Assembly: GCA_963841935.1 (NCBI GenBank)
Contig: CAWJEP010000004.1
Span: 14,975 to 78,974 of the forward strand
Reading direction: 5' to 3'
DNA: 64,000 nucleotides
DNA from: an uncultured bacterium
GTDB taxonomy: Bacteria > Patescibacteriota > Minisyncoccia > Phycocordibacterales > UBA6065
The notes under the pieces were generated by a model. It was not told the DNA's origin. It was given only the letters and a program-made list of their open reading frames with translations, and ran no database searches. This document shows, one piece after another, positions 1 through 56,097 of the stretch. A program made the position numbers and the translations under genes. Every line of letters begins with the position of its first letter. The stretch's first letter is position 1.

Positions 1-114
1 CACAGGTGAAGACTATCGCGGAGAAAAAATTGCCAGACCTTTCCGCAGGATCGCTCGAAGCGGCAATGAGAACGATAGAAGGCACGGCAAGAAATATGGG
101 AGTGGAGGTGAAGT
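1..114 (+). CDS. rplK: ribosomal protein L11, C-terminal fragment (gene starts upstream of the window)
   Basis: Frame 3 reads ...[32 protein letters not shown]-stop. This matches the conserved L11 C-terminus (PDL.A..LE.AM..I.GTARSMG.V). Stop TAA at 112-114. Confidence 0.6.
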
Positions 115-196
115 AAAAAACGCAGACAAAGTATTTTTTCGCTTGTGCGCTTCGCTCCGACTTACGCGCTCAAAAATACTTTGTCTGCGTTTTTTT
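115..196 (+). terminator. intrinsic terminator hairpin containing a conserved 49-nt palindromic core (copy A)
   Basis: Left arm aaaaaacgcagacaaagtatttttt, 32-nt loop cgcttgtgcgcttcgctccgacttacgcgctc, right arm aaaaatactttgtctgcgttttttt. The arms are perfectly complementary and end in a T-run, directly after the rplK stop. Confidence 0.6.
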
Positions 197-197
197 C

Positions 198-225
198 TTG
201 CAAAAAAATTTTCGGTAAGTAGTAT
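198..225 (+). promoter_or_regulatory. sigma70-like promoter, TTGCAA-N16-TAGTAT
   Basis: TTGCAA at 198-203, 16-nt spacer, TAGTAT at 220-225, about 35 nt upstream of the 259 start. The same -10 hexamer TAGTAT recurs at three other predicted promoters in the window. Confidence 0.4.
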
Positions 226-258
226 GAATCTCAAACACCAAAATGCAAGGAGTACCTT

Positions 259-834
259 ATGAAAATCAGTCTGTATTTCGCTCAATCTCTGACAAAGGCG
301 CCTCCGCGGCTCATCGCGTCAATCGAGCGTTTCCGTCAGCGCGTAAAGAAAAGACATCCCGAGTGGGAGCTCTTGGAATTTTTCGGGCTCGGGCCGAGCC
401 CGAACGACGGCAAGATCGCCAAGTTCGACATCATCAGGCTTCTGCGGGCCAGGCTCGTAGTGGCGTTCATCGAAGGCGAATCGGCTGGGAGGGATATCGA
501 AATCGGCATACGACTCGCACTCGGATTGCCGATCTTGATTGTCGCCCACAAGAATTGGGTCAGGTCTAGGATGGTCACCGGGCCGGCGGAGCTTTGGCCG
601 AAGTTCGTGAAGTTTCGCCGGTATCGGCGGATAAACGAAGTCGAGGGCATGATAGTCGCGGCCATTAAGCGCTTCGGGTTCAAGGACTTTTATGCGCCGT
701 CGGTCTATGTCGCTCCGCATTTGCAGGAGCTGTACAAAAAGGCCGTCAGGAAATGTCTTGTGGGCCCGGGACCGGGAAGGATTGGATATATTACTGACCC
801 GGATACAAAGGAGCTCAAGTTGGTCTTTGGCTAA
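259..834 (+). CDS. hypothetical protein; weak resemblance to the nucleoside 2-deoxyribosyltransferase-like fold
   Basis: 191-aa ORF with higher GC than its neighbours. The motif VAFIEGESAGRDIEIGIRLALGLPILIVAHKN resembles the E.G...G.P catalytic-Glu region of the NDT-like family. It lies next to nucleotide-metabolism genes. The functional call is weak. Confidence 0.45.
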   Translation: MKISLYFAQSLTKAPPRLIASIERFRQRVKKRHPEWELLEFFGLGPSPNDGKIAKFDIIRLLRARLVVAFIEGESAGRDIEIGIRLALGLPILIVAHKNWVRSRMVTGPAELWPKFVKFRRYRRINEVEGMIVAAIKRFGFKDFYAPSVYVAPHLQELYKKAVRKCLVGPGPGRIGYITDPDTKELKLVFG

Positions 835-837
835 GTC

Positions 838-870
838 AGCCTCGCGAAACGCGAGGCTTTTTATTTTCTG
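838..870 (+). terminator. rho-independent terminator
   Basis: agcctcgcgaaacgcgaggct hairpin followed by TTTTTATTTT. Confidence 0.6.
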
Positions 871-891
871 AAATCGGAATATACTTTTCTC

Positions 892-1389
892 ATGGAAAAA
901 ACTACAAAACATGTGCGACCAAGCTGGGATGAATATTTCATAAAAATTTGCCGCGTTGTTGGCGAGCGGGCGACGTGCGATAGAGGTTCAGGAGGCTGCG
1001 TGATTGTTAAAGACAAAAGAATTCTTACGACGGGTTATGTCGGAGCGCCTGCCGGAGTCGCTCATTGCGATGAGGTGGGCCACGAACTTCACACGGTGAT
1101 AGACGATGACGGCACGCAATCAAAACATTGCATCAGAACATCGCACGGCGAACAAAACGCCATCGCGAACGCCGCGAGAAAAGGCGTGGCCATCGAAGGC
1201 GCGACGCTTTATTATTTCATTACGCCCTGCTATATCTGCGCCAAGATGATTATCAACTCCGGAATAAAACGAGTCGTGGTGGAAAAGGATTATCATTCTT
1301 CGAAAAGAAGCAAAGAAGTATTCAAAGAAGCCGGTGTCGAATTCGTCCTTCTCAATCCAGAAGTGGAAACTTACGCGGATATGAAATAG
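892..1389 (+). CDS. dCMP deaminase (cytidine/deoxycytidylate deaminase family)
   Basis: HGEQNAI (zinc-binding H.E) and PCYICAKMIINSGIKRVV (PC..C) motifs; 165 aa. Confidence 0.8.
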   Translation: MEKTTKHVRPSWDEYFIKICRVVGERATCDRGSGGCVIVKDKRILTTGYVGAPAGVAHCDEVGHELHTVIDDDGTQSKHCIRTSHGEQNAIANAARKGVAIEGATLYYFITPCYICAKMIINSGIKRVVVEKDYHSSKRSKEVFKEAGVEFVLLNPEVETYADMK

Positions 1390-1390
1390 C

Positions 1391-2699
1391 TCACTCTTTC
1401 TTCACAATGTCGTGGAGACCGCGTTTGATGTTCCAAATGCCCGCCGAGGTGTCGTGGTGCATTGCGATGCCCGGAACGCTTTCTTTGATGGCGTCGCCCA
1501 TTCTTTGAGCTTCACGGCGTAGTGTCGGATGGACAGCGTCTCCGGAGCGCAGCTCGGCGATATAGACGGCGGAGGGAAGTGGACAGGTGATTTTGACCGT
1601 CACGGTGTATCCCATTGCCACGTAATATTGTTTTATTTCTTTTGAAGTTTTCAGTTTGGCAATTCTTTTTTCTTGTTCTGCCAAAAGTTTCGCCGCTTCT
1701 TTTTTTAATTCCGGCGTGAGCTGTTCGAGATACCACGGATAAAATCCGTGGGCCGTTGAAAGCAGAGGCATTTCTTGCACGGCGCTTCGATGACGTTGCA
1801 AGTCCCTATATGAACCGAAATCCAAAGAGAACCTGAAAACAATATCACCGTATTCACGCAATCTCTGGTGAAGTTCGGTCTTTGCCGGCCTTTCGGCGAG
1901 AAGTTTTTGGTGTTTTTTCAAGCCATCGAGGTCGAGACGGACTTCATACGAGAAATTTTTTATTGTCGCATCGTCAAAATAGGCGAACTCCGCCATTGTT
2001 TTTTCCAAATAATCATCCTCTGCCGGATATTCAGGATAGCCAAAGCTCGACGGGTATTTTGTTTTCAGTCCTGAAAGTATGTTGTTTGCAACTTCCCGCA
2101 CTTCGGAGAGTGGATGATGACGCATTTCCTTCATGTGGTCGTAAGCTTGGCGGAGGTTCGTGTGCCAAGCGACGTATGTCGTCGCGCCGGCCGGAAGAAA
2201 TCCTCGCGCGATGTCGAAAGCGCGGGCCTTTATGGCTTTTTCGTATATCGTTTCTTTTTCTCCTTCTTTTATCGGGAAGCGAACCTTGAGTGACGGCACA
2301 AGTTTTTCCAAAGCGTGGCTGTAAAATTTCATCCATTCGTCCTGAATCTCTTTGCTTTCCTTTCGTCTCAAGCGGATCGACGACCGGCTGATTCGCCATG
2401 TCCAGATAGCGCGTCGAAGCCTCTTGGCCGCTGTATAGTGGCCAGTCCTGAATGGCTTTGGCTACGAGCATCGAAACGTTTTCCGCGCATATGGTCGTCG
2501 TGCCGCAGTCGCCGATGGATTTGTGTCCGTAACCGACGTAGTAGCTCGCCATAAATTTCTCCGGTCCGACTTTCGCCACTTCTTCGAGATGGATTTTCGC
2601 GCTCCGCGGACTTCTTGAATATTTCGCCTGAATCATCGCCACCGCTTCGGGAGCGATGCCGTCAATTATTATTATTTCTCTCTGTTTTTTTTCTTCCAT
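1391..2699 (-). CDS. thyX: flavin-dependent thymidylate synthase ThyX, tandem-duplicated (two ThyX-like halves); reading frame interrupted by one frameshift near 2335-2395
   Basis: Two overlapping minus-strand ORFs (2031..2699 and 1391..2371) in different frames. The N-terminal half carries GHKS...VAKAIQDWPLYSGQEASTRY. The C-terminal half carries VFRFSLDFGSYRDLQRHRS and ARGFLPAGATTYVAWHTNLRQ, all ThyX-like. Confidence 0.6.
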
Positions 2700-6728: not shown

Positions 6729-9700
6729 ATGGAGCAAAAACCTAGGAATAAGCTTGTGGAAATCGAGGAAGAAATTCTCGCTTTTTGGAACAAGGAGAAA
6801 ATCTTTCAAAAATCCCTCGAAAAAGAATCTCCTATGGGCGAGTTTGTTTTCTACGACGGACCACCATTCGCCACGGGTTCGCCGCACTACGGGCACGCTC
6901 TGGCCGGGACAATCAAAGATGTCGTCTTGCGATACAAGACGATGCGCGGATTTCGCATTCCTCGTCGCTGGGGTTGGGATTGCCACGGATTGCCCGTGGA
7001 AAATCTCGTCGAGAAAGAACTCAATCTCGCCACGAAAAAAGATATTGAAAAATACGGCGTCGAGAAATTCAACGAAGCGGCGAGAGCGAGTGTTTTTCGT
7101 TATGAAAAAGAGTGGAAGAAAATTATTCCGCGCACGGGGAGATGGATGGATATGGAAAATCCTTACAGCACCATGGATTCGTCATACACGGAATCGGTCT
7201 GGTGGGCGTTTAGTAAACTTCACAAAAAAAATCTCATCTATGAAGGATATAAATCGATGCAGATTTGTCCGCGTTGCGAGACGACCTTGTCGAATTTCGA
7301 AGTCGGGCAAGGATACAAAGACGTCACGGATATTTCCGTTTACGCGAAATTCGAACTCATTGACGAGCCGAACACATTTCTCCTCGCTTGGACGACCACG
7401 CCATGGACATTGCCGGGGAATGCGGCTCTAGCGGTCGGCAGGAATATAAATTATTCAAAAGTTTTGTGCGAAAACGCGATATGTATCGTCGCCGAAGAAA
7501 AAGTCGCCGAAGTTTTTGCCGGAAAACAATATGAAACAGCCGGAAAAATTCTCGGGAGCGGGCTTGTCGGAAAAGAATACGAACCGCTGTTTGATTATTA
7601 CGACGATGATTCGATAAAAAATCACGGGAACGCTTTTAAAGTTTACGCCGCGGATTTTGTCACGACCACTGACGGCACGGGAATCGTCCACATCGCTCCG
7701 GCGTTCGGCGAAGACGATATGAATCTGGGCCGTGAATACGATTTGCCTTTTATCCAGCACGTCTCGATGGACGGAACTTTCAAAAAAGAAGTCAGAGATT
7801 TCGCCGGCCTTCATGTAAAGCCGAAAGACGACCCGCAGAAAACGGACATAGAAATCATCAAATGGCTCGCGGCGAAAAACCTGCTTTTCGCCAAGAAAAA
7901 AATCGTCCATCCGTATCCGCATTGCTGGCGTTGCGACACGCCACTTCTCAATTACGCCGCGAGCTCGTGGTTCGTGAAAGTGGCGAGTTTCAAGGATAAA
8001 TTGGTTTCTGAAAACAAAAAAGTCTCGTGGGTACCAAGCGAAATCGGCGAAAACAGGTTTGGCGATTGGCTTTCCGGCGCGCGGGATTGGGCTATTTCGC
8101 GTTCGCGTTTCTGGGGCGCGCCTATTCCAGTCTGGCGTTGCGAAGATTGCGATAGGGCAAAGGTCGTCGGCTCGCTTGAAGACATAAAAAAATATTCAAA
8201 GCCGAGAAACAAATACATTTTGATGCGCCACGGCGAGTCCGAAAGCAATGTTTTGGGCTTGGCAAGCGTAAATGTTCATAACAAAGACAATGTTACCGAG
8301 AAAGGCAGAGGGGAAACGGTATTTTCGGCCAAGAAACTTTCCGGCGAGAAAATAGACCTCGTAGTTTCTTCACCTTTTATTAGGACAAGAGAAACAGCGG
8401 AAATCATGGCGGAAAATATCGGATACCCGAAAGAAAAAATAGAATACGATAATCGTTTGGGAGAATTGAACATCGGAATTTTCGACGGTAAACCTTGGAG
8501 CGAGTATCACGGTTTTGTCGGAACTTATCAAAACAGATTTATCAAAGCACCCGAAGGCGGCGAGACGCTTTTTGAAGTCAGAGAAAGGATGCTTTCGGCG
8601 CTTTACGACATTGATAAAAAAAATACCGGGAAAACTATTCTCATCATGAGTCACGAAGCGCCGCTTTTCGTCCTCGACCAAGCGGTTTTGGGAGTTGACC
8701 CGAAAAAAACCGTAAAGCACGGAGAGTTTTTGAAAAACGCAGAGTTCAAGAAAATAAATTTCGTTCATCTTCCTCACGATAAAAATTTCAAAACGGATTT
8801 TCATCGGCCTTTCATCGACCAGATTTTCCTCTCCTGCGAATGCGGTGGAAAAATGAAACGCGTGCCGGAAGTTTTCGACTGCTGGTTTGAATCCGGCTCG
8901 ATGCCTTACGCCTCGGCGCATTATCCTTTCGAAAAAGAAAATTTTTCTCCGAGAAAATTTTTCAAAAGCAAGCGCTATCCGGCGGATTTTATCGCCGAGG
9001 GACTCGACCAAACTCGCGGATGGTTTTATTCGATGCTCGTCCTCGGCACGGCGCTTTTCGGAAAAACACCCTATAAAAATGTGGTGGTAAACGGCCTTAT
9101 TCTCGCCGAAGACGGCACAAAAATGTCCAAATCAAAAGGCAATTTCTCGCCGCTTATGGATACCATGGACAAATACGGCGCGGACGCTTTGCGGTATTTT
9201 CTGTCCGCGTCGCCCGCCGTCCGCGCCGAAGACGTGTGTTTTTCCGAAAAAAGCGTCGATGAAGTATCGAAAAAGCTTTTGCAAAGACTCGACAACGTTT
9301 TGGCTTTTTACGAACTTTACGCCGACAAGAAATTTGTCGAGAAAACCGAGCCGAAAAATATTTTGGACAAATGGATACTCGCCAGACTCGATGAGACGAT
9401 AAAGAAAGTCACGGAAGCGCTCGAAAAATACGAGCTCGACCGAGGCGCGCGGCCGATTTTGGATTTCGTCGACGATATGTCGAATTGGTATATACGCCGT
9501 AGCCGAGAGAGGTTTAAATCCGACGACGAGGCAGACAAATCGGCCGCGCTAAACACTACGCGACACGTGCTCTGCGAACTTTCAAAGATTATGGCGCCGT
9601 TCACGCCTTTCTACGCCGAATATCTTTTCGGAAAAACGAAATTCGAAGGCGCGAAAGAAAGCGTTCATCTCGAAAATTGGCTGGAAGCGAAAACTTTCGA

Positions 9701-10181
9701 CGAGAAATTGGTTGACGATATGAAAGAAGCGAGAAAACTTGTGACGCTCGGCCTAGAACAAAGGGCGAAAGCCGGAATAAAAGTCCGCCAGCCCCTCTCA
9801 AGCGCGAAAATGAAAATCAGAAATCTAACGGCTGGCGTGTCAGCACTCATCGCGGACGAACTCAATGTCAAAGAAATCGTAAATAGCGACGGAGAGATTC
9901 AAATAGACACCAATATCACGCCGGCACTTCGCGAAGAGGGAACAGTCCGAGAGTTTGTCCGCGCGGTGCAGGAACTGCGTAAGGAGAATGGATTTTCCGT
10001 AAGCGACCATGCTGTTCTCTTAGTTGACTCCGACGAAAAAGGCAAGGAGCTCGTGTCCAAATCCCACGCCGAACTTAAAAAAGTCGCAAATGTTTCGGAA
10101 ATCAAGCACGAAAAAATCAACGATGCCGAACTTCTCAAAATCGAGGAATATTCTTTTAAACTCAAAATACTTAAGAAGTAA
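6729..10181 (+). CDS. ileS: isoleucine--tRNA ligase (archaeal/eukaryotic type) carrying an inserted histidine-phosphatase domain
   Basis: PPFATGSPHYGHAL, HCWRCDTPL, RDWAISRSRFWGAPIPVW, EVFDCWFESGSMPYA and KMSKSKGN motifs. Continuous 1150-aa ORF. Confidence 0.9.
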   Translation: MEQKPRNKLVEIEEEILAFWNKEKIFQKSLEKESPMGEFVFYDGPPFATGSPHYGHALAGTIKDVVLRYKTMRGFRIPRRWGWDCHGLPVENLVEKELNLATKKDIEKYGVEKFNEAARASVFRYEKEWKKIIPRTGRWMDMENPYSTMDSSYTESVWWAFSKLHKKNLIYEGYKSMQICPRCETTLSNFEVGQGYKDVTDISVYAKFELIDEPNTFLLAWTTTPWTLPGNAALAVGRNINYSKVLCENAICIVAEEKVAEVFAGKQYETAGKILGSGLVGKEYEPLFDYYDDDSIKNHGNAFKVYAADFVTTTDGTGIVHIAPAFGEDDMNLGREYDLPFIQHVSMDGTFKKEVRDFAGLHVKPKDDPQKTDIEIIKWLAAKNLLFAKKKIVHPYPHCWRCDTPLLNYAASSWFVKVASFKDKLVSENKKVSWVPSEIGENRFGDWLSGARDWAISRSRFWGAPIPVWRCEDCDRAKVVGSLEDIKKYSKPRNKYILMRHGESESNVLGLASVNVHNKDNVTEKGRGETVFSAKKLSGEKIDLVVSSPFIRTRETAEIMAENIGYPKEKIEYDNRLGELNIGIFDGKPWSEYHGFVGTYQNRFIKAPEGGETLFEVRERMLSALYDIDKKNTGKTILIMSHEAPLFVLDQAVLGVDPKKTVKHGEFLKNAEFKKINFVHLPHDKNFKTDFHRPFIDQIFLSCECGGKMKRVPEVFDCWFESGSMPYASAHYPFEKENFSPRKFFKSKRYPADFIAEGLDQTRGWFYSMLVLGTALFGKTPYKNVVVNGLILAEDGTKMSKSKGNFSPLMDTMDKYGADALRYFLSASPAVRAEDVCFSEKSVDEVSKKLLQRLDNVLAFYELYADKKFVEKTEPKNILDKWILARLDETIKKVTEALEKYELDRGARPILDFVDDMSNWYIRRSRERFKSDDEADKSAALNTTRHVLCELSKIMAPFTPFYAEYLFGKTKFEGAKESVHLENWLEAKTFDEKLVDDMKEARKLVTLGLEQRAKAGIKVRQPLSSAKMKIRNLTAGVSALIADELNVKEIVNSDGEIQIDTNITPALREEGTVREFVRAVQELRKENGFSVSDHAVLLVDSDEKGKELVSKSHAELKKVANVSEIKHEKINDAELLKIEEYSFKLKILKK
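8206..8775 (+). other. in-frame histidine phosphatase (PGAM-like, RHG superfamily) domain inserted within ileS
   Basis: YILMRHGESESN (RHG catalytic motif), SSPFIRTRETAE, ILIMSHEAPL (His-containing second half). It lies between IleS segments VVGSLEDIKKYS and TDFHRPFIDQIF, which are contiguous in canonical type-2 IleS. Confidence 0.7.
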
Positions 10182-18546: not shown

Positions 18547-19319
18547 TGAAACCGCAATTTATAGATGTTCACGCGCATTTAAATTTCGCCGATTACGACG
18601 CGGACAGGGAAGAGACAATAAAACGCGCTCTTCTCGCCGGCGTTTGGCTCATAAATGTCGGCGTGGAGAAAAAGGAATCAAAACTCGCCGTGGAGATTGC
18701 GGGAAAATATAAAGAAGGCGTTTATGCAATCGTCGGACAACATCCGACGAGCAAAGAAGATTTTGATTTGGATTTCTACAGAAAGTTAGCGAAATCGAAA
18801 AAAATCGTGGGAATAGGCGAGTGCGGACTCGATTTTTTCAGAGTGACCGACGAGGCTGCGCGCGAAAAACAGTATGCTGTTTTTCGCGCGCAGATAGAAC
18901 TCGCCCTAGAACTTGATTTACCTCTGATGATTCATTGTCGAGACGCATATGCGGAGACGCTCGCTATTTTGAATGAATACAAAGCGAAAGCGGGGGACAA
19001 ACTGCGCGGCGATTTCCATTTTTTCGCCGGAGATATCGAAATCGCCCAGAAAATTTTGGATTTGGGATTCAATCTTTCATTTACCGGCGTCATAACATTT
19101 GCCCGCGAATACGAGAAACTCGTGAAATTTGTCCCGCTCGACCGAATGTTTTCCGAGACCGATTGCCCATTCGTCACGCCCGTGCCCAATCGCGGCAAAA
19201 GGAACGAACCACTTTTTGTCCGCGATGTCGTCGCTAAAATCGCTCGTATCAGAAACGAAGATTCCGAAAAAGTCGGCGAGCAACTTCTCAAAAACGCCAT
19301 AAAGTTTTTCCGGCTCTAA
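18546..19319 (+). CDS. tatD: TatD-family metal-dependent deoxyribonuclease
   Basis: FIDVHAHLNF and IGECGLDFF motifs. Start overlaps the metG stop. Confidence 0.85.
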   Translation: MKPQFIDVHAHLNFADYDADREETIKRALLAGVWLINVGVEKKESKLAVEIAGKYKEGVYAIVGQHPTSKEDFDLDFYRKLAKSKKIVGIGECGLDFFRVTDEAAREKQYAVFRAQIELALELDLPLMIHCRDAYAETLAILNEYKAKAGDKLRGDFHFFAGDIEIAQKILDLGFNLSFTGVITFAREYEKLVKFVPLDRMFSETDCPFVTPVPNRGKRNEPLFVRDVVAKIARIRNEDSEKVGEQLLKNAIKFFRL

Positions 19320-31666: not shown

Positions 31667-33085
31667 ATGCGTCGGCGGACGTACTTTTTTATTTCGTTTT
31701 TAACTCTCGGTTTCCTTGTCCCGTTTTGTGTTCTCGCCGATTCCAGCAATATTAGTTCCCTAGTTTTTACAACCGAACCACAGACCGTAGACGCCGGTGT
31801 TCTTTCTCAAGAAATGACCGTCCAAACGCAGGATATTTCTGGTAATCCGATTCCGGCAGGAGAGACAAGCACCACAACTTTAACGAGCACGTCTCCCACA
31901 GGTCAGTTTTTTGGACCATCCGGCACATCGGCATTTTCACAAACAACTTCCGCTACCACAGAAAATAGAAATTTTACTTACAAAGATTCGAACCCAGGTA
32001 CATACACCATCACGGCGACGTTAATAGGCCGAACGAGCGGTAAGCAGTTTTCCGCGACGCAGACAATTGTTGTTACCGGTTCATCGGCTGATAATTCTTC
32101 ATCGGATAATTCAGACGCCTCTTCCACAAATAATTCATCAGCCGATTTAAATACCACTTCAAACAATTCGGAAGAGAACTCTTCCGACGCCTATTCAAGC
32201 CAAGAAACGATTTACGCCGGTTCGGATGATGAATCTTTCGGTTTGAGTATTGGCAGGAATCGTTTGGTCTCGGTCGGTGAGCCGGTTGTTTTTCTCGCGA
32301 GAATCATTTCCGGCGATTCATCATACGCCGGGACGCTTTTTCATTTCGCTTTTGGCGACGGCACCGAATGGAACGGCGAAAGCGCGACCCATACGTATAA
32401 ATACCCTGGAGATTATATTGTCGTCGTCGAAGCCAACCGATTTGGCGTGGATGCTGTCGCCGAAGCCAAGGTAAAAGTTGTCTCTCCGGACGTGGTCATT
32501 TCAAATTCCGACGCGAATTCGGTTGTTGTGACAAACAACGGAGCCGATGAAATCAATTTGGGCGGTTGGGTCATAACCGACTTCGTTGGAAGGTTTATCG
32601 TGCCGCAGGACACGATAATTTTGGCCCATTCGTCAATTACTGTTTCCTCGTCCGTGATGAAAACGAAAACTTTTTCCGGAGTCATAAGTCTTTATGACCC
32701 GTCGGAGAAGGAAGTGGCCGCCGCGCCTACGGACGCGGCGGCGGGCGGAGACATGACGATTGCTTTGCCTGGGGGAATGACTGCGGCTGAATTTAGCGAT
32801 ACGTTCTCACAGAAATTTTCCGACGCTTTGAAAGATTCCGAAACATCCGTTGAGGGAAATGGTGTGAAGGAGACGAAGGTAGTGGCGCGGCCTGCCGGCG
32901 GGCAGGCCGCGCCACTGCCCGCTAACGCGGAAGCGGCGGTCGCCGCTTCGTCGTCTCCAGAAGTCGCCGTCAACGAGTCCAGTTCCTCGGCGGCTACGGT
33001 GATTTATAGTGTTCCACACCATTCTGAGGACTCTGTTTTCTCCGGCATCGGTTCTTGGTTTAGCGGCCTATTCGGAAAAAAATGA
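31667..33085 (+). CDS. secreted protein with signal peptide, Ser/Asn-rich linker, PKD domain and LTD domain
   Basis: Signal peptide FFISFLTLGFLVPFCVLA. PKD-like region FHFAFGDGTEWNGESATHTYKYPGDYIVVVEANRFG. LTD-like region VVVTNNGADEINLGGWVITDFVGRFIVPQD. Confidence 0.7.
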   Translation: MRRRTYFFISFLTLGFLVPFCVLADSSNISSLVFTTEPQTVDAGVLSQEMTVQTQDISGNPIPAGETSTTTLTSTSPTGQFFGPSGTSAFSQTTSATTENRNFTYKDSNPGTYTITATLIGRTSGKQFSATQTIVVTGSSADNSSSDNSDASSTNNSSADLNTTSNNSEENSSDAYSSQETIYAGSDDESFGLSIGRNRLVSVGEPVVFLARIISGDSSYAGTLFHFAFGDGTEWNGESATHTYKYPGDYIVVVEANRFGVDAVAEAKVKVVSPDVVISNSDANSVVVTNNGADEINLGGWVITDFVGRFIVPQDTIILAHSSITVSSSVMKTKTFSGVISLYDPSEKEVAAAPTDAAAGGDMTIALPGGMTAAEFSDTFSQKFSDALKDSETSVEGNGVKETKVVARPAGGQAAPLPANAEAAVAASSSPEVAVNESSSSAATVIYSVPHHSEDSVFSGIGSWFSGLFGKK

Positions 33086-46298: not shown

Positions 46299-46321
46299 TT
46301 TTCGGTTACACTTATAGGCGT

Positions 46322-46912: not shown

Positions 46913-47686
46913 ATGGCAGTCATCATAAAAACTCAAGAAGAAATAGAAAAAATGCGCGAGGGTGGCAAGCGCCACGCGCGAATTTTGCGCGAACTCTCCA
47001 AACTCGTTAAGCCGGGGATTTCTTCGCAGGAATTGGAAAATACGGCTCTAGAACTCATTAAAAAGGAGGGCGGCAAGGCGTCTTTTCTCGGATATAAGCC
47101 GTGGGGAGCGAAGTACTCGTTTCCAGCGGCGCTTTGCGTTTCAATAAACGACGAAGTCGTTCACGGAATTCCAAACGGCAATTCGTCAAAAATCTTGCGA
47201 GAAGGCGATATTGTCTCTCTCGACCTTGGGTTTACTTACAAAGGTCTCATTACCGACGCCGCCATCACGGTCGGCGTCGGTAGAATAAATCCGCAAGCGA
47301 AAAAACTTTTGGCGACGACCGAAGAAGCTATGTACGCCGGAATAAAAAAAGCAAAAGTAGGAAACACTACGGGCGATATTGGAGCGGCGGTTTTCGCCGT
47401 CGGCAAAAAAGCCGGATTCGGCGTCGTGGACATTCTCTCCGGCCATGGCGTCGGCAGATTCGTCCACGAAGACCCCTACGTGCCGAATTTCGGAGAAAAA
47501 GGCGAGGGCGAAGTTTTGAAAGGCGGAATGACCATCGCCGTCGAGCCGATGTTTAATCTCGGCACGAAAGAAATTATTTTGGAAAAAGACGGTTACACTT
47601 TTCGCACCGCGGACAAAAAAATGTCGGCGCATTTCGAGCACACTATTTTAATTACGGAAAAAGGCGCGGAGATTTTAACAAAATAA
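46913..47686 (+). CDS. map: methionine aminopeptidase type I
   Basis: Pita-bread fold motifs (GDIVSLDLGFTYKGLITD, HGVGRFVHEDP, GMTIAVEPM). Confidence 0.9.
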   Translation: MAVIIKTQEEIEKMREGGKRHARILRELSKLVKPGISSQELENTALELIKKEGGKASFLGYKPWGAKYSFPAALCVSINDEVVHGIPNGNSSKILREGDIVSLDLGFTYKGLITDAAITVGVGRINPQAKKLLATTEEAMYAGIKKAKVGNTTGDIGAAVFAVGKKAGFGVVDILSGHGVGRFVHEDPYVPNFGEKGEGEVLKGGMTIAVEPMFNLGTKEIILEKDGYTFRTADKKMSAHFEHTILITEKGAEILTK

Positions 47687-47757
47687 AATCGGGTATTTTT
47701 TCGCTTGTGCGCTCCGCTCCGACTTACGCGCTCAAAAATACCCAATTTTATTTTGTT
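47680..47757 (+). terminator. terminator hairpin containing the conserved 49-nt palindromic core (copy B)
   Basis: caaaataaaatcgg + GTATTTTTTCGCTTGTGCGCTCCGCTCCGACTTACGCGCTCAAAAATAC + ccaattttattttg. The core is 48/49 identical to copy A at 131-179. The outer stem sequence is unrelated to copy A. Confidence 0.6.
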
Positions 47758-48389: not shown

Positions 48390-48454
48390 TTTTTGACTGT
48401 TTTTTTCGTATTTATCCACGTATCTTTTTTGAAAACTATTGCTTATAATTAGGC

Positions 48455-48640
48455 GGGTCAGAGAAGTGGTGTTCTATAAACCATTTTAAGGGATAGTCGT
48501 ATCGTGATGAGTTCAGTGAGCACCTTCGGGAGTTCTAAGAAACATTCGTGTGACAACCCACCTAGATTTTCTAGGGCGACCACTTCATGACCCCTCGAAA
48601 AAGCCCGATTTGCCCGCCGGCAAATCGGGCTTTTTCATTT
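48455..48640 (+). ncRNA. candidate structured 5' leader (riboswitch- or attenuator-like) ending in an intrinsic terminator just before the 48657 gene
   Basis: Possible TATAAT at 48444-48449. Long-range closing stem GGGTCAGAGAAGTGGT (48454-48469) with ACCACTTCATGACCC (48580-48594). Terminator aaaagcccgatttgcccgccggcaaatcgggcttttt at 48598-48636, 20 nt before the start codon. Confidence 0.35.
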
Positions 48641-55238: not shown

Positions 55239-55644
55239 TGGTGGAGATGGGCGGAGTTGAACCGCCGTGCAGACGAGGACCTCATATGGTTCTACGCGAT
55301 GTAGAGATTTTCTTTTGTTTAAGCGTTCACGCTATGAAAGTCACAAAATACGTGGACGCCGATTTTCTTTCCGCTATTCGCGGTTCGGCCGTGCGTCGAA
55401 ACGCTGCACGTCTATTCCGGGCGGATGACGCTTGACTCACTTTTGTCCGGAAGTGTTGGTGAGAAGCGCCGTCTAGACGTAAATTACGCGTAGACAGGAG
55501 CAAAAGCGAAGGCTCCGAAAGGAGACGCTACGGATTTTGCTTTCGAAATGCTGTTTGCATTTGAATTTTCCGAAAGTTTAAAGAGTTCTCGGAGCTCTAT
55601 CGCGCGCATAAGAGGGGAATCGTCTGTCGATGCCTGTCATCCCC
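55239..55644 (-). ncRNA. ssrA: transfer-messenger RNA (tmRNA)
   Basis: Minus-strand 5' end GGGGATGACAGGCATCGACAGACGA follows the canonical GGGG.UGA…GG.UCGAC.G pattern. 3' end GGCGGTTCAACTCCGCC CATCTCC A CCA forms a T-arm plus acceptor strand complementary to 5' GGGGATG (one G-U pair). Internal candidate tag ORF GCA AAC AGC…GTC TAC GCG TAA. smpB lies immediately upstream on the same strand. Confidence 0.75.
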
Positions 55645-55653
55645 ATATGTAAA

Positions 55654-56097
55654 TTATTTTTTCAACGAACGACCGATGTCTCGCTCGGTATCGCGTTTCT
55701 TTATGGACTCTCTCTTGTCGAACTTTTTCTTGCCCCTGACGACACCGAGTGAGACTTTTATCTTACCATTTTTATTATACATCGACAAGGGTACTATTGT
55801 CAAACCTTTCTTGGAATCAACGACCGCGAGCGCGGCGATTTCTTTTTTCGAAAGCAAAAGGCGGCGAAGCCTTTCTGGCTCATAGTCGGCCGGAGTGTTG
55901 CCGGCTTGATAGGCAGGTATGGAAAGTCCGGAGAGAAAGGCTTCGCCGCCGCGGACGAGAACGTAACTGCCGTCGAGAGCCACGCTTTTCGTTCGGAGAG
56001 CTTTTACTTCGTGTCCGGCAAGCTCGATACCGGCTTCGACGGTGTCCAGGATTTCGTAATCAAAACGGACTTTTTTGTTCGTGGCGATATCGGGCAT
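55654..56097 (-). CDS. smpB: SsrA-binding protein
   Basis: MPDIATNKKVRFDYEILDTVEAGIELAGHEVKALR…GSYV…GLSIPAY matches SmpB. The track ORF is over-extended to 56259. Confidence 0.85.
   Translation of the reverse strand: MPDIATNKKVRFDYEILDTVEAGIELAGHEVKALRTKSVALDGSYVLVRGGEAFLSGLSIPAYQAGNTPADYEPERLRRLLLSKKEIAALAVVDSKKGLTIVPLSMYNKNGKIKVSLGVVRGKKKFDKRESIKKRDTERDIGRSLKK

Follow-up and report, generated by a model that had tools for sequence, protein, structure and literature searches.

A 49-nucleotide palindromic repeat, probably mobile, that builds terminator-like hairpins at gene ends in Patescibacteria

Rickettsia palindromic elements (RPEs), reportedly described by Ogata and colleagues in 2000, are said to occupy both intergenic DNA and, in frame, housekeeping ORFs. 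With a length of about 100-150 bp, RPEs are conserved from end to end. REP and REPIN sequences are short hairpin repeats at gene ends, present in tens to hundreds of copies and persisting at conserved positions, for which roles in termination or mRNA stability have been proposed; domestication has been proposed for REPIN-RAYT systems, in which REPs often flank the gene of the Y1 HUH transposase (RAYT). Correia/NEMIS elements of Neisseria and the ERIC, RUP, BOX and Nezha repeats measure 100-400 bp, with terminal inverted repeats of at least 20 bp and a direct target duplication (TA for Correia). Among larger elements, IS1397 and ISKpn1 insert into REP loops, and class C group II introns insert next to terminators. 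To our knowledge, no known bacterial transposon inserts into palindrome centres with inverted flank duplication. CPR (Patescibacteria) genomes are regarded as streamlined, with few repeats.

We analysed a window of 64,000 nt, the whole stretch of DNA presented above, in which a preliminary description had pointed to a 49-nt palindromic core shared by two hairpins. The core represents a previously undescribed element family that builds terminator-like hairpins at gene ends. No such element is described in the literature on CPR bacteria that was covered; this coverage was incomplete, which makes it weak evidence of novelty.

A conserved 49-nt unit in locus-specific stems

The core occurs twice in the window, both times on the + strand (Table 1), as first described. 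The two copies are alike at 48 of 49 bases, the sole difference being T152 in copy A and C47714 in copy B. With up to 3 mismatches allowed, the window contained no third copy, and none was present in 100 dinucleotide-preserving shuffles. The spacing between the inner arms is 33 nt in both copies, which corrects the 32-nt loop reported before. The left arm of copy A overlaps the stop codon of rplK (114-116), and that of copy B overlaps the stop codon of map (47684-47686), with ndk as the next gene. Compared with shuffled sequences, both whole hairpins showed much better folds on either strand (z from -5.9 to -8.1). Hairpin B contains a single mismatch, C·A on the + strand and hence G·T on the - strand. 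Positions 149-155, in the middle of copy A, read GCTTCGC, and the opposite strand reads GCGAAGC. The outer stems of copies A and B are unrelated to each other and each is self-complementary, as had been noted; the two copies are therefore not a segmental duplication.

Table 1. Hairpins, filled and empty sites, in-gene copies and sequence variants (window coordinates unless a locus is named)
Feature	Location	Strand	Description
Whole hairpin A	111..199	no strand	arms 111-138 and 172-199, 28 nt, 96% complementary
Hairpin A, runs	115-120; 190-197		A-run on the left; T-run on the right
Copy A, 49-nt unit	131..179	+	inner inverted repeat GTATTTTT (131-138) / AAAAATAC (172-179) flanking 33-nt middle
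Copy A, middle	139..171	+	33 nt, TCGCTTGTGCGCTTCGCTCCGACTTACGCGCTC
Whole hairpin B	47677..47757	no strand	arms 47677-47700 and 47734-47757, 24 nt, 96% complementary
Copy B, 49-nt unit	47693-47741	+	middle 47701-47733
Copy B, excess over empty allele	47690..47744	+	55 nt = CGGGTATTTTT + middle + AAAAATACCCA
Copy B, further excess	47745-47749		ATTTT, ~5 nt, beside the 55 nt
Empty site, dCMP-deaminase-like gene and thyX	1383..1400		GAAATAG-CTCA-CTCTTTC, convergent stop codons of the two genes
Empty site, secY-adk	46299..46321		secY-adk spacer
map-ndk, empty	L056, L061, L062 (three independent assemblies)		...ACAAAATAAAATATTTTGTGG...
map-ndk, window			ACAAAATAAAAT / CGGGTATTTTT-middle-AAAAATACCCA / ATTTT / ATTTTGT, at centre of empty-allele palindrome
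map-ndk, filled	L012, L043		same copy as in the window, small partly compensated stem changes
map-ndk, filled	L060		middle inverted
map-ndk, filled	L059		CC->AA variant, left half-site duplicated
map-ndk, filled	L058		const3 hairpin, 25-bp stem, same point
map-ndk, island	L055 6623-13676; L057 9462-15809		~7-kb island with T4SS-like genes at the same point (window 47687)
In-gene copies, PolA linker	L006, L044		two independent copies, opposite orientations, different frames
In-gene copy, alanine racemase	L001		in frame
In-gene copy, ComEC	L008		in frame
In-gene copy, class-I methyltransferase	L042		in frame
In-gene copy, UvrC, N-terminal half	L041		in frame
const1b			middle variant, CC->AA plus 1-nt deletion
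Intermediate middle form	L059		CC->AA
Expanded middle form	L005 6713-6752		internal expansion
const3			sister family, TCGAAAACTCGCTTYGCTCARACATTCTC
const2 and const4			carrier families, each holding a const1 hairpin nested in its own middle

In an exact scan of 185,579 species representatives with 22 specified middle bases, the core was present in only one of them, a MAG with 9 copies on 8 contigs. JGI metagenome contigs, scanned with 20 bases of the middle, gave 47 matches in 44 contigs. From the two scans together, about 46 distinct copies, with stems that differ from locus to locus, were left once identical sequences had been removed. The core is thus multi-copy in related genomes rather than confined to two occurrences. 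Viral contigs scanned for the core contained no copy. One 21-nt match in an unrelated GC-rich contig, with no hairpin and no RNA family, was rejected as a chance match (L017). Because the best protein matches of the neighbouring genes were named Paceibacterota, Taylorbacteria or Patescibacteria, the hosts are taken to be a narrow clade of Patescibacteria (CPR), Paceibacteria- or Taylorbacteria-like; the label 'Saccharibacteria' on the 9-copy MAG is doubtful.

Among 33 non-orthologous copies, only the 8 stem positions adjoining the middle were informative (0.4-1.4 bits; Y-T-T-T-T-A-T-G in outward order), and positions further out carried 0.0-0.5 bits, mostly about 0.1-0.3, being merely A-rich. 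The conserved unit is 8+33+8 = 49 nt, GTATTTTY, the 33-nt middle and RAAAATAC, and coincides exactly with the core recognised earlier. GTATTTTY/RAAAATAC forms terminal inverted repeats, as in MITEs, in these 33 copies. Part of the near-constancy at middle positions 9-29 is a product of the scans, which demanded an exact match of 20-22 nt there; a relaxed search of the retrieved loci brought up diverged middle variants as well (Table 1). An inner repeat, (G/A)TATTTTT ... AAAAATA(C/T), is common to const1-const4, and the central GCTTCGC (GCGAAGC on the other strand) is common to const1, const1b and most const3 copies. Nesting inside the middles of sister elements was seen in 3 cases. Judging from these likenesses, const1-const4 appear to share the architecture of a tiny MITE-like superfamily.

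We sought a significant fold of the middle alone by nearest-neighbour folding and found none (z = +0.4 on both strands); the idea that the middle folds by itself was rejected. That five of its six reading frames are open is uninformative, about 3.5 open frames being expected for 11 codons by our estimate. Elsewhere in the window, beside the tmRNA gene (55239-55644), positions 55860-55950 hold perfect 17-bp arms, GGCGGCGAAGCCTTTCT and AGAAAGGCTTCGCCGCC, around a 57-nt middle with an inner hairpin; this structure could represent a further hairpin-loop element or belong to a gene.

Stem statistics were taken from an ungapped alignment of 36 copies with 20 stem pairs. Paired cells amounted to 94.9%, compared with 57.0±1.3% in shuffles and 41-50% with the partners slid, and the covariation score was 0.969 against 0.20; double-sided changes occurred in 19 of the 20 stem pairs. 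Pairing was almost purely Watson-Crick, in outer stems that are locus-specific. The few mismatches were unevenly distributed between the strands: the strand written TCGCTTGT... had 19 A·C/C·A and 3 G·T/T·G (two-sided binomial p ~0.0009; ~0.004 without the three outermost positions), and on the opposite strand the A·C mismatches become G·T wobbles. This polarity tracks the orientation of the core, not the direction of the adjacent genes; in the copies with such mismatches, the adjacent mRNA would have G·U in six and A·C in four. That the A-rich arm always lies 5' of the core is uninformative, a perfect palindrome reading alike on both strands.

On the strand that favours G·T, copy A reads GCGAAGC and copy B GCGGAGC. 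The two agree with d(GCGNAGC), and the single base that differs between the window copies is its N. d(GCGNAGC) is a very stable DNA mini-hairpin motif at single-stranded DNA priming sites (PMC13037366). We give this match little weight because the middle has a z of +0.4 and two const3 copies break the motif.

Filled and empty sites at gene ends

We compared the map-ndk spacer across ten related contigs and the window. The map genes of the related contigs are 72-78% identical (51-57% at third codon positions), and the middles at this site are 30-33/33 identical across the genomes compared. The empty allele is an 8-bp palindrome, ACAAAATA-AAA-TATTTTGT, over the stop codon. Since this allele already has ACAAAATA/TATTTTGT, most of the outer stem of copy B predates the insertion; the ~5 nt ATTTT in the window spacer extend the pairing beyond the 55-nt unit. 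The other occupants of the same point are listed in Table 1. Those of L055 and L057, directly after the map stop codon, include the genes TraG-D_C, DUF8128 and T4SS-DNA_transf.

Beyond ndk, window positions 48394-48640 form a conserved intergenic stretch with a promoter-like TTGACT...TATAAT, followed by a sequence of ~140 nt with pairing ends (putative RNA body ~48455-48593, terminator 48597-48636). RNAalifold on five genomes gave 43 pairs, 9 of them with compensatory changes, and there was no Rfam match. This stretch is probably an unannotated small RNA gene.

Two further sites are empty in the window. That at 1383-1400 is an imperfect 7-bp palindrome; at the equivalent position, L036 and L049 have a complete hairpin, with middles 33/33 identical and stems that differ by one compensatory change, A-T to G-C. 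The secY-adk spacer is filled in L026, by a copy whose stem is 27 bp long, and holds an ordinary short terminator in L043. Empty homologues of filled sites thus exist both in relatives (map-ndk) and in the window itself (1383-1400 and 46299-46321). After rplK, L036 has an ordinary terminator versus copy A in the window; the downstream gene differs too, and this is not a clean empty site. The window rplK is not followed by rplA, the next ORF (259-834) having no Pfam match. When window 117-890 is set against L036 5215-6066, the genes after rplK are not homologous and the flanks are syntenic, which marks a variable slot beside copy A.

The preliminary description had proposed insertion into the loops of pre-existing terminator hairpins. 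Copy B does lie at the centre of an older palindrome, but this palindrome, an AT-only 8-bp repeat over the stop codon, is weak and not a real terminator. A model in which an existing terminator is always invaded is contradicted by the empty sites. The empty states elsewhere lack a hairpin or have a different terminator. On these comparisons, the element creates a terminator-like hairpin more often than it invades one.

No clear direct target-site duplication was found at the filled/empty comparisons. The extra ATTTT at map-ndk adjoins the element and is not a flanking direct repeat, and palindromic flanks blur the boundaries. The left half-site is present twice in L059 and in L036.

Most copies lie 0-15 nt from a stop codon, and their orientation varies: of those that adjoin one, about 14 have the core on the same strand as the gene and about 8 have it on the other strand. 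Convergent genes flank five copies. The reported association with translation-related operons is true of rplK and map in the window; the link is incidental, as other copies follow hsp20, dnaK, thyX, secY and more.

In the hairpins, a perfect stem of 20-30 bp lies between an A-run and a T-run. Because the ordinary terminators of the window (stems of 15-19 bp, loops of 3-5 nt) are built alike, the hairpins probably act as bidirectional intrinsic terminators, and termination may be the reason why intergenic copies persist. A canonical intrinsic terminator has a G+C-containing stem, a loop of 3-8 nt and a U-tract at the 3' end of the transcription unit. A loop of 33 nt far exceeds this, and a simple consensus terminator scan did not call the element hairpin sites (loop 33 nt). 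In the secY-adk spacer of L058, positions 9328-9401 form a perfect long palindrome, GGAAAAGTGGCATTTCTTTTTT-CG-AAAAAATGAAATGCCACTTTTC, with the T-run/A-run inner repeat of the family and almost no middle. This palindrome may be a hairpin element that lost its loop, a hint that such elements gave rise to some of the ordinary terminators with long stems.

Copies inside genes

At least six non-orthologous copies lie in frame, without stop codons, inside identifiable genes (Table 1), with Pfam domain matches on both sides of, or across, each insert. Their stem lengths are 18, 21 or 24 bp, multiples of 3, with the exception of the UvrC copy (20 bp). As predicted from the ORFs, the middle is translated in four of six frames, as ERVSRSEAHKR, ACALRSDLRA, ARKSERSAQA and SLVRFAPTYAL. 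Alanine racemase homologues without the insert have the ancestral length. Relatives of PolA carry decayed versions, such as SLVRFAPTTRS, and the copies in ORFs are therefore not protected from decay.

Alleles of alanine racemase give ambiguous information on where the stem comes from. Of the two empty alleles, L053 contains the right arm ACCCTGCCGCGC and L054 the left-arm-like GCACGGCAG; this may mean either that the flank was duplicated in inverted form during insertion or that 'one arm plus middle' was lost in independent deletions. L053 supports a model in which movement is restricted to the 49 nt and every stem arises as an inverted copy of flanking sequence. The same model is contradicted by non-orthologous copies that share up to ~20 bp of stem and by sites where the whole hairpin is new (thyX, secY-adk). 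The outer stem could come from a pre-existing palindrome, from inverted flank duplication, or be carried in with the element.

Other interrupted or palindromic genes occur in the window. A class I tRNA synthetase ORF of the isoleucyl/valyl type (6729-10178, 1150 aa) has a complete His_Phos_1 (histidine-phosphatase) domain inserted at residues 497-663. A perfect 19-bp palindrome with a 4-nt loop lies at 32878-32919 inside the ORF of a PKD/LTD-domain protein, and a perfect 17-bp palindrome, also with a 4-nt loop, at 18856-18893 inside TatD. The latter was ruled out as an insertion, the Pfam match running straight through it.

Interpretation and comparison with known elements

Our best explanation, which we consider likely, is that the 49-nt unit is a very small non-autonomous palindromic repeat of a CPR clade, MITE/REP/RPE-like and mobile now or recently. 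It is supported by gain and loss at orthologous sites, by subfamilies, by nesting and by the presence of both orientations at one site. The small palindromic element first suggested for the two window hairpins is favoured in the same way by the multiple copies, the empty sites and the differing flanks.

Copy B sits at the centre of an older short palindrome, and its long perfect stem combines the half-sites already there, the inverted repeat of the element and a few bases that were newly duplicated. This central landing, the nesting, and the exchange of families and occurrence of both orientations at one site suggest that single-stranded centres of hairpins or palindromes are preferred as targets. 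Because the stem mismatches are almost all G·T on one strand, whatever the direction of transcription, we infer that a single-stranded intermediate of fixed polarity may move the element. Candidate routes would be template switching from one hairpin to another and transposition as single-stranded DNA, in the manner of IS200/IS605 or REP-RAYT.

The neighbourhoods of the copies yielded no transposase or other mobilising gene, the Pfam-annotated loci (~0.4 Mb of fragments) no Y1_Tnp and no RAYT gene, and the retrieved loci no candidate for a parent autonomous IS with the same terminal repeats. Between the paired inverted copies in L019 and L007 there was no transposase and only housekeeping genes (RsmI-like, MBL-fold, NUDIX, nitroreductase, sugar kinase).

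A broader proposal, conceivable but on balance doubtful, would make const1-const4 a superfamily of 45-60-nt 'loop cassettes' that move as single-stranded DNA hairpins of fixed polarity into palindrome centres, extend these by inverted flank duplication and install or replace bidirectional terminators; the middle with d(GCGNAGC) would be the recognition site of a putative, possibly domesticated enzyme.

The most serious alternative is a host cis-element, in which a protein or an RNA would bind the 33-nt middle, as the preliminary description had also considered, on a hairpin or cruciform at the end of a gene; the copies would be vertically inherited and kept by purifying selection. It would gain from orthologous middles that are 30-33/33 identical while third codon positions of map are only 51-57% identical, from the fully identical middles of L036 and L049 on stems with a compensatory change, from the GCTTCGC common to const1, const1b and most const3 copies, and from the strand-specific tolerance of G·T, which points to selection on one single strand. 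Against it stand presence and absence among close relatives, different middle families at one site, flips of orientation relative to genes and at the same site, copies in ORFs of unrelated housekeeping genes, with those in the PolA linker decaying, and the lack of both a significant fold in the middle alone and a candidate binding partner. We regard this alternative as unlikely as a full account; it is compatible with a mobile origin via domestication.

The high identity of the middles, despite near-saturated synonymous sites, has two possible causes: purifying selection on a bound site, and homogenisation or re-insertion. At the map site it fits purifying selection at least as well as re-insertion or gene conversion. 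A hint of gene conversion comes from L059, in which the CC->AA change equals the diagnostic bases of another subfamily.

A structured small RNA, a ribozyme gene or a regulatory motif acting as RNA, with the stem selected as RNA and a functional loop, would account for very stable folds on both strands, strong stem covariation and copies at mRNA 3' ends. Such a product is nevertheless highly improbable. A search of Rfam at gathering and permissive thresholds returned nothing specific to the hairpins, the window's only match being tmRNA, and the hairpins scored 15-39 bits on generic long-hairpin models with gathering thresholds of 44-245 bits. Watson-Crick pairs make up almost all of the pairing, the strand on which G·T is favoured depends on core polarity and not on the direction of the adjacent gene, both orientations relative to transcription occur, and the in-frame, stop-free copies in ORFs speak against cleavage or independent transcription.

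Chance, segmental duplication, and an assembly or library artefact such as a hairpin adapter, which the constant loop between inverted flanks resembles only superficially (as in adapter read-through), are refuted by recurrence in multiple assemblies and by orthologous filled and empty sites: shuffles gave no match, the flanks are unrelated, the same element stands at consistent positions in independent NCBI, ENA, JGI and Logan assemblies, and the stems are only 20-30 bp, with normal genes continuing on both sides.

If the small mobile repeat is the right explanation, a 49-nt sequence shapes gene ends in CPR bacteria and adds peptides to proteins that include PolA, ComEC and alanine racemase, with a turnover that exceeds that of the genes around it. 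In annotation, it would account for odd insertions in CPR proteins and for long hairpins after genes. As mobile DNA, it would be a minimal element with a conserved middle, variable stems and palindrome centres as target, and its strand-biased mismatches open a single-stranded mechanism to testing. Should the hairpins indeed terminate transcription, it would be a selfish element that spreads terminators.

The analogy with REP, RPE and Correia-type elements drawn in the preliminary description holds for behaviours that are shared and breaks down at the defining features of size and of conserved tag and stem, and apparently at target-site duplication. Like RPEs, the CPR elements are small non-coding palindromic repeats in reduced genomes, whose in-frame copies add a peptide without breaking the gene; insertion with the frame kept was found in PolA, alanine racemase, ComEC, the methyltransferase and UvrC. 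They differ from RPEs in the unit of 49-55 nt, the locus-specific outer stems, the absence of sequence similarity, the phylum, and their concentration at stop codons with a terminator-like build.

With REP/REPIN sequences they share the range of copy number, long-term persistence at conserved positions, hairpins at gene ends and strand-specific features consistent with recognition of single-stranded DNA. REPs carry 5' GTAG or CGTC tags (PMC3733652). In the alignment of 36 copies and in the arm logo, GTAG and CGTC were absent from the foot of the hairpin, and the stem beyond 8 nt was not conserved. REPs, imperfect palindromes of 20-40 nt, conserve their stem and tag around a short and variable loop, whereas in the CPR element the middle is conserved and the stem varies.

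Correia/NEMIS elements and MITEs are likewise non-autonomous intergenic inverted repeats with presence/absence variation and subfamilies, and can supply terminators or processing sites; the CPR unit differs from them in its 49-55 nt, its repeat of 8-11 bp and the absence of a detectable direct duplication. IS1397/ISKpn1 and class C group II introns also use the centre or loop of gene-end palindromes as landing sites, which gives nested palindromes, but these are autonomous, 1-2 kb long and equipped with their own enzyme, whereas the CPR element encodes nothing. Intrinsic (Rho-independent) terminators resemble it in the perfect stem, the A-run upstream, the T-run downstream and the position directly after stop codons. 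Their loops are of 3-5 nt without conserved sequence, in contrast to the conserved 33 nt of the CPR element, which also occurs inside ORFs, where it has no A or T runs.
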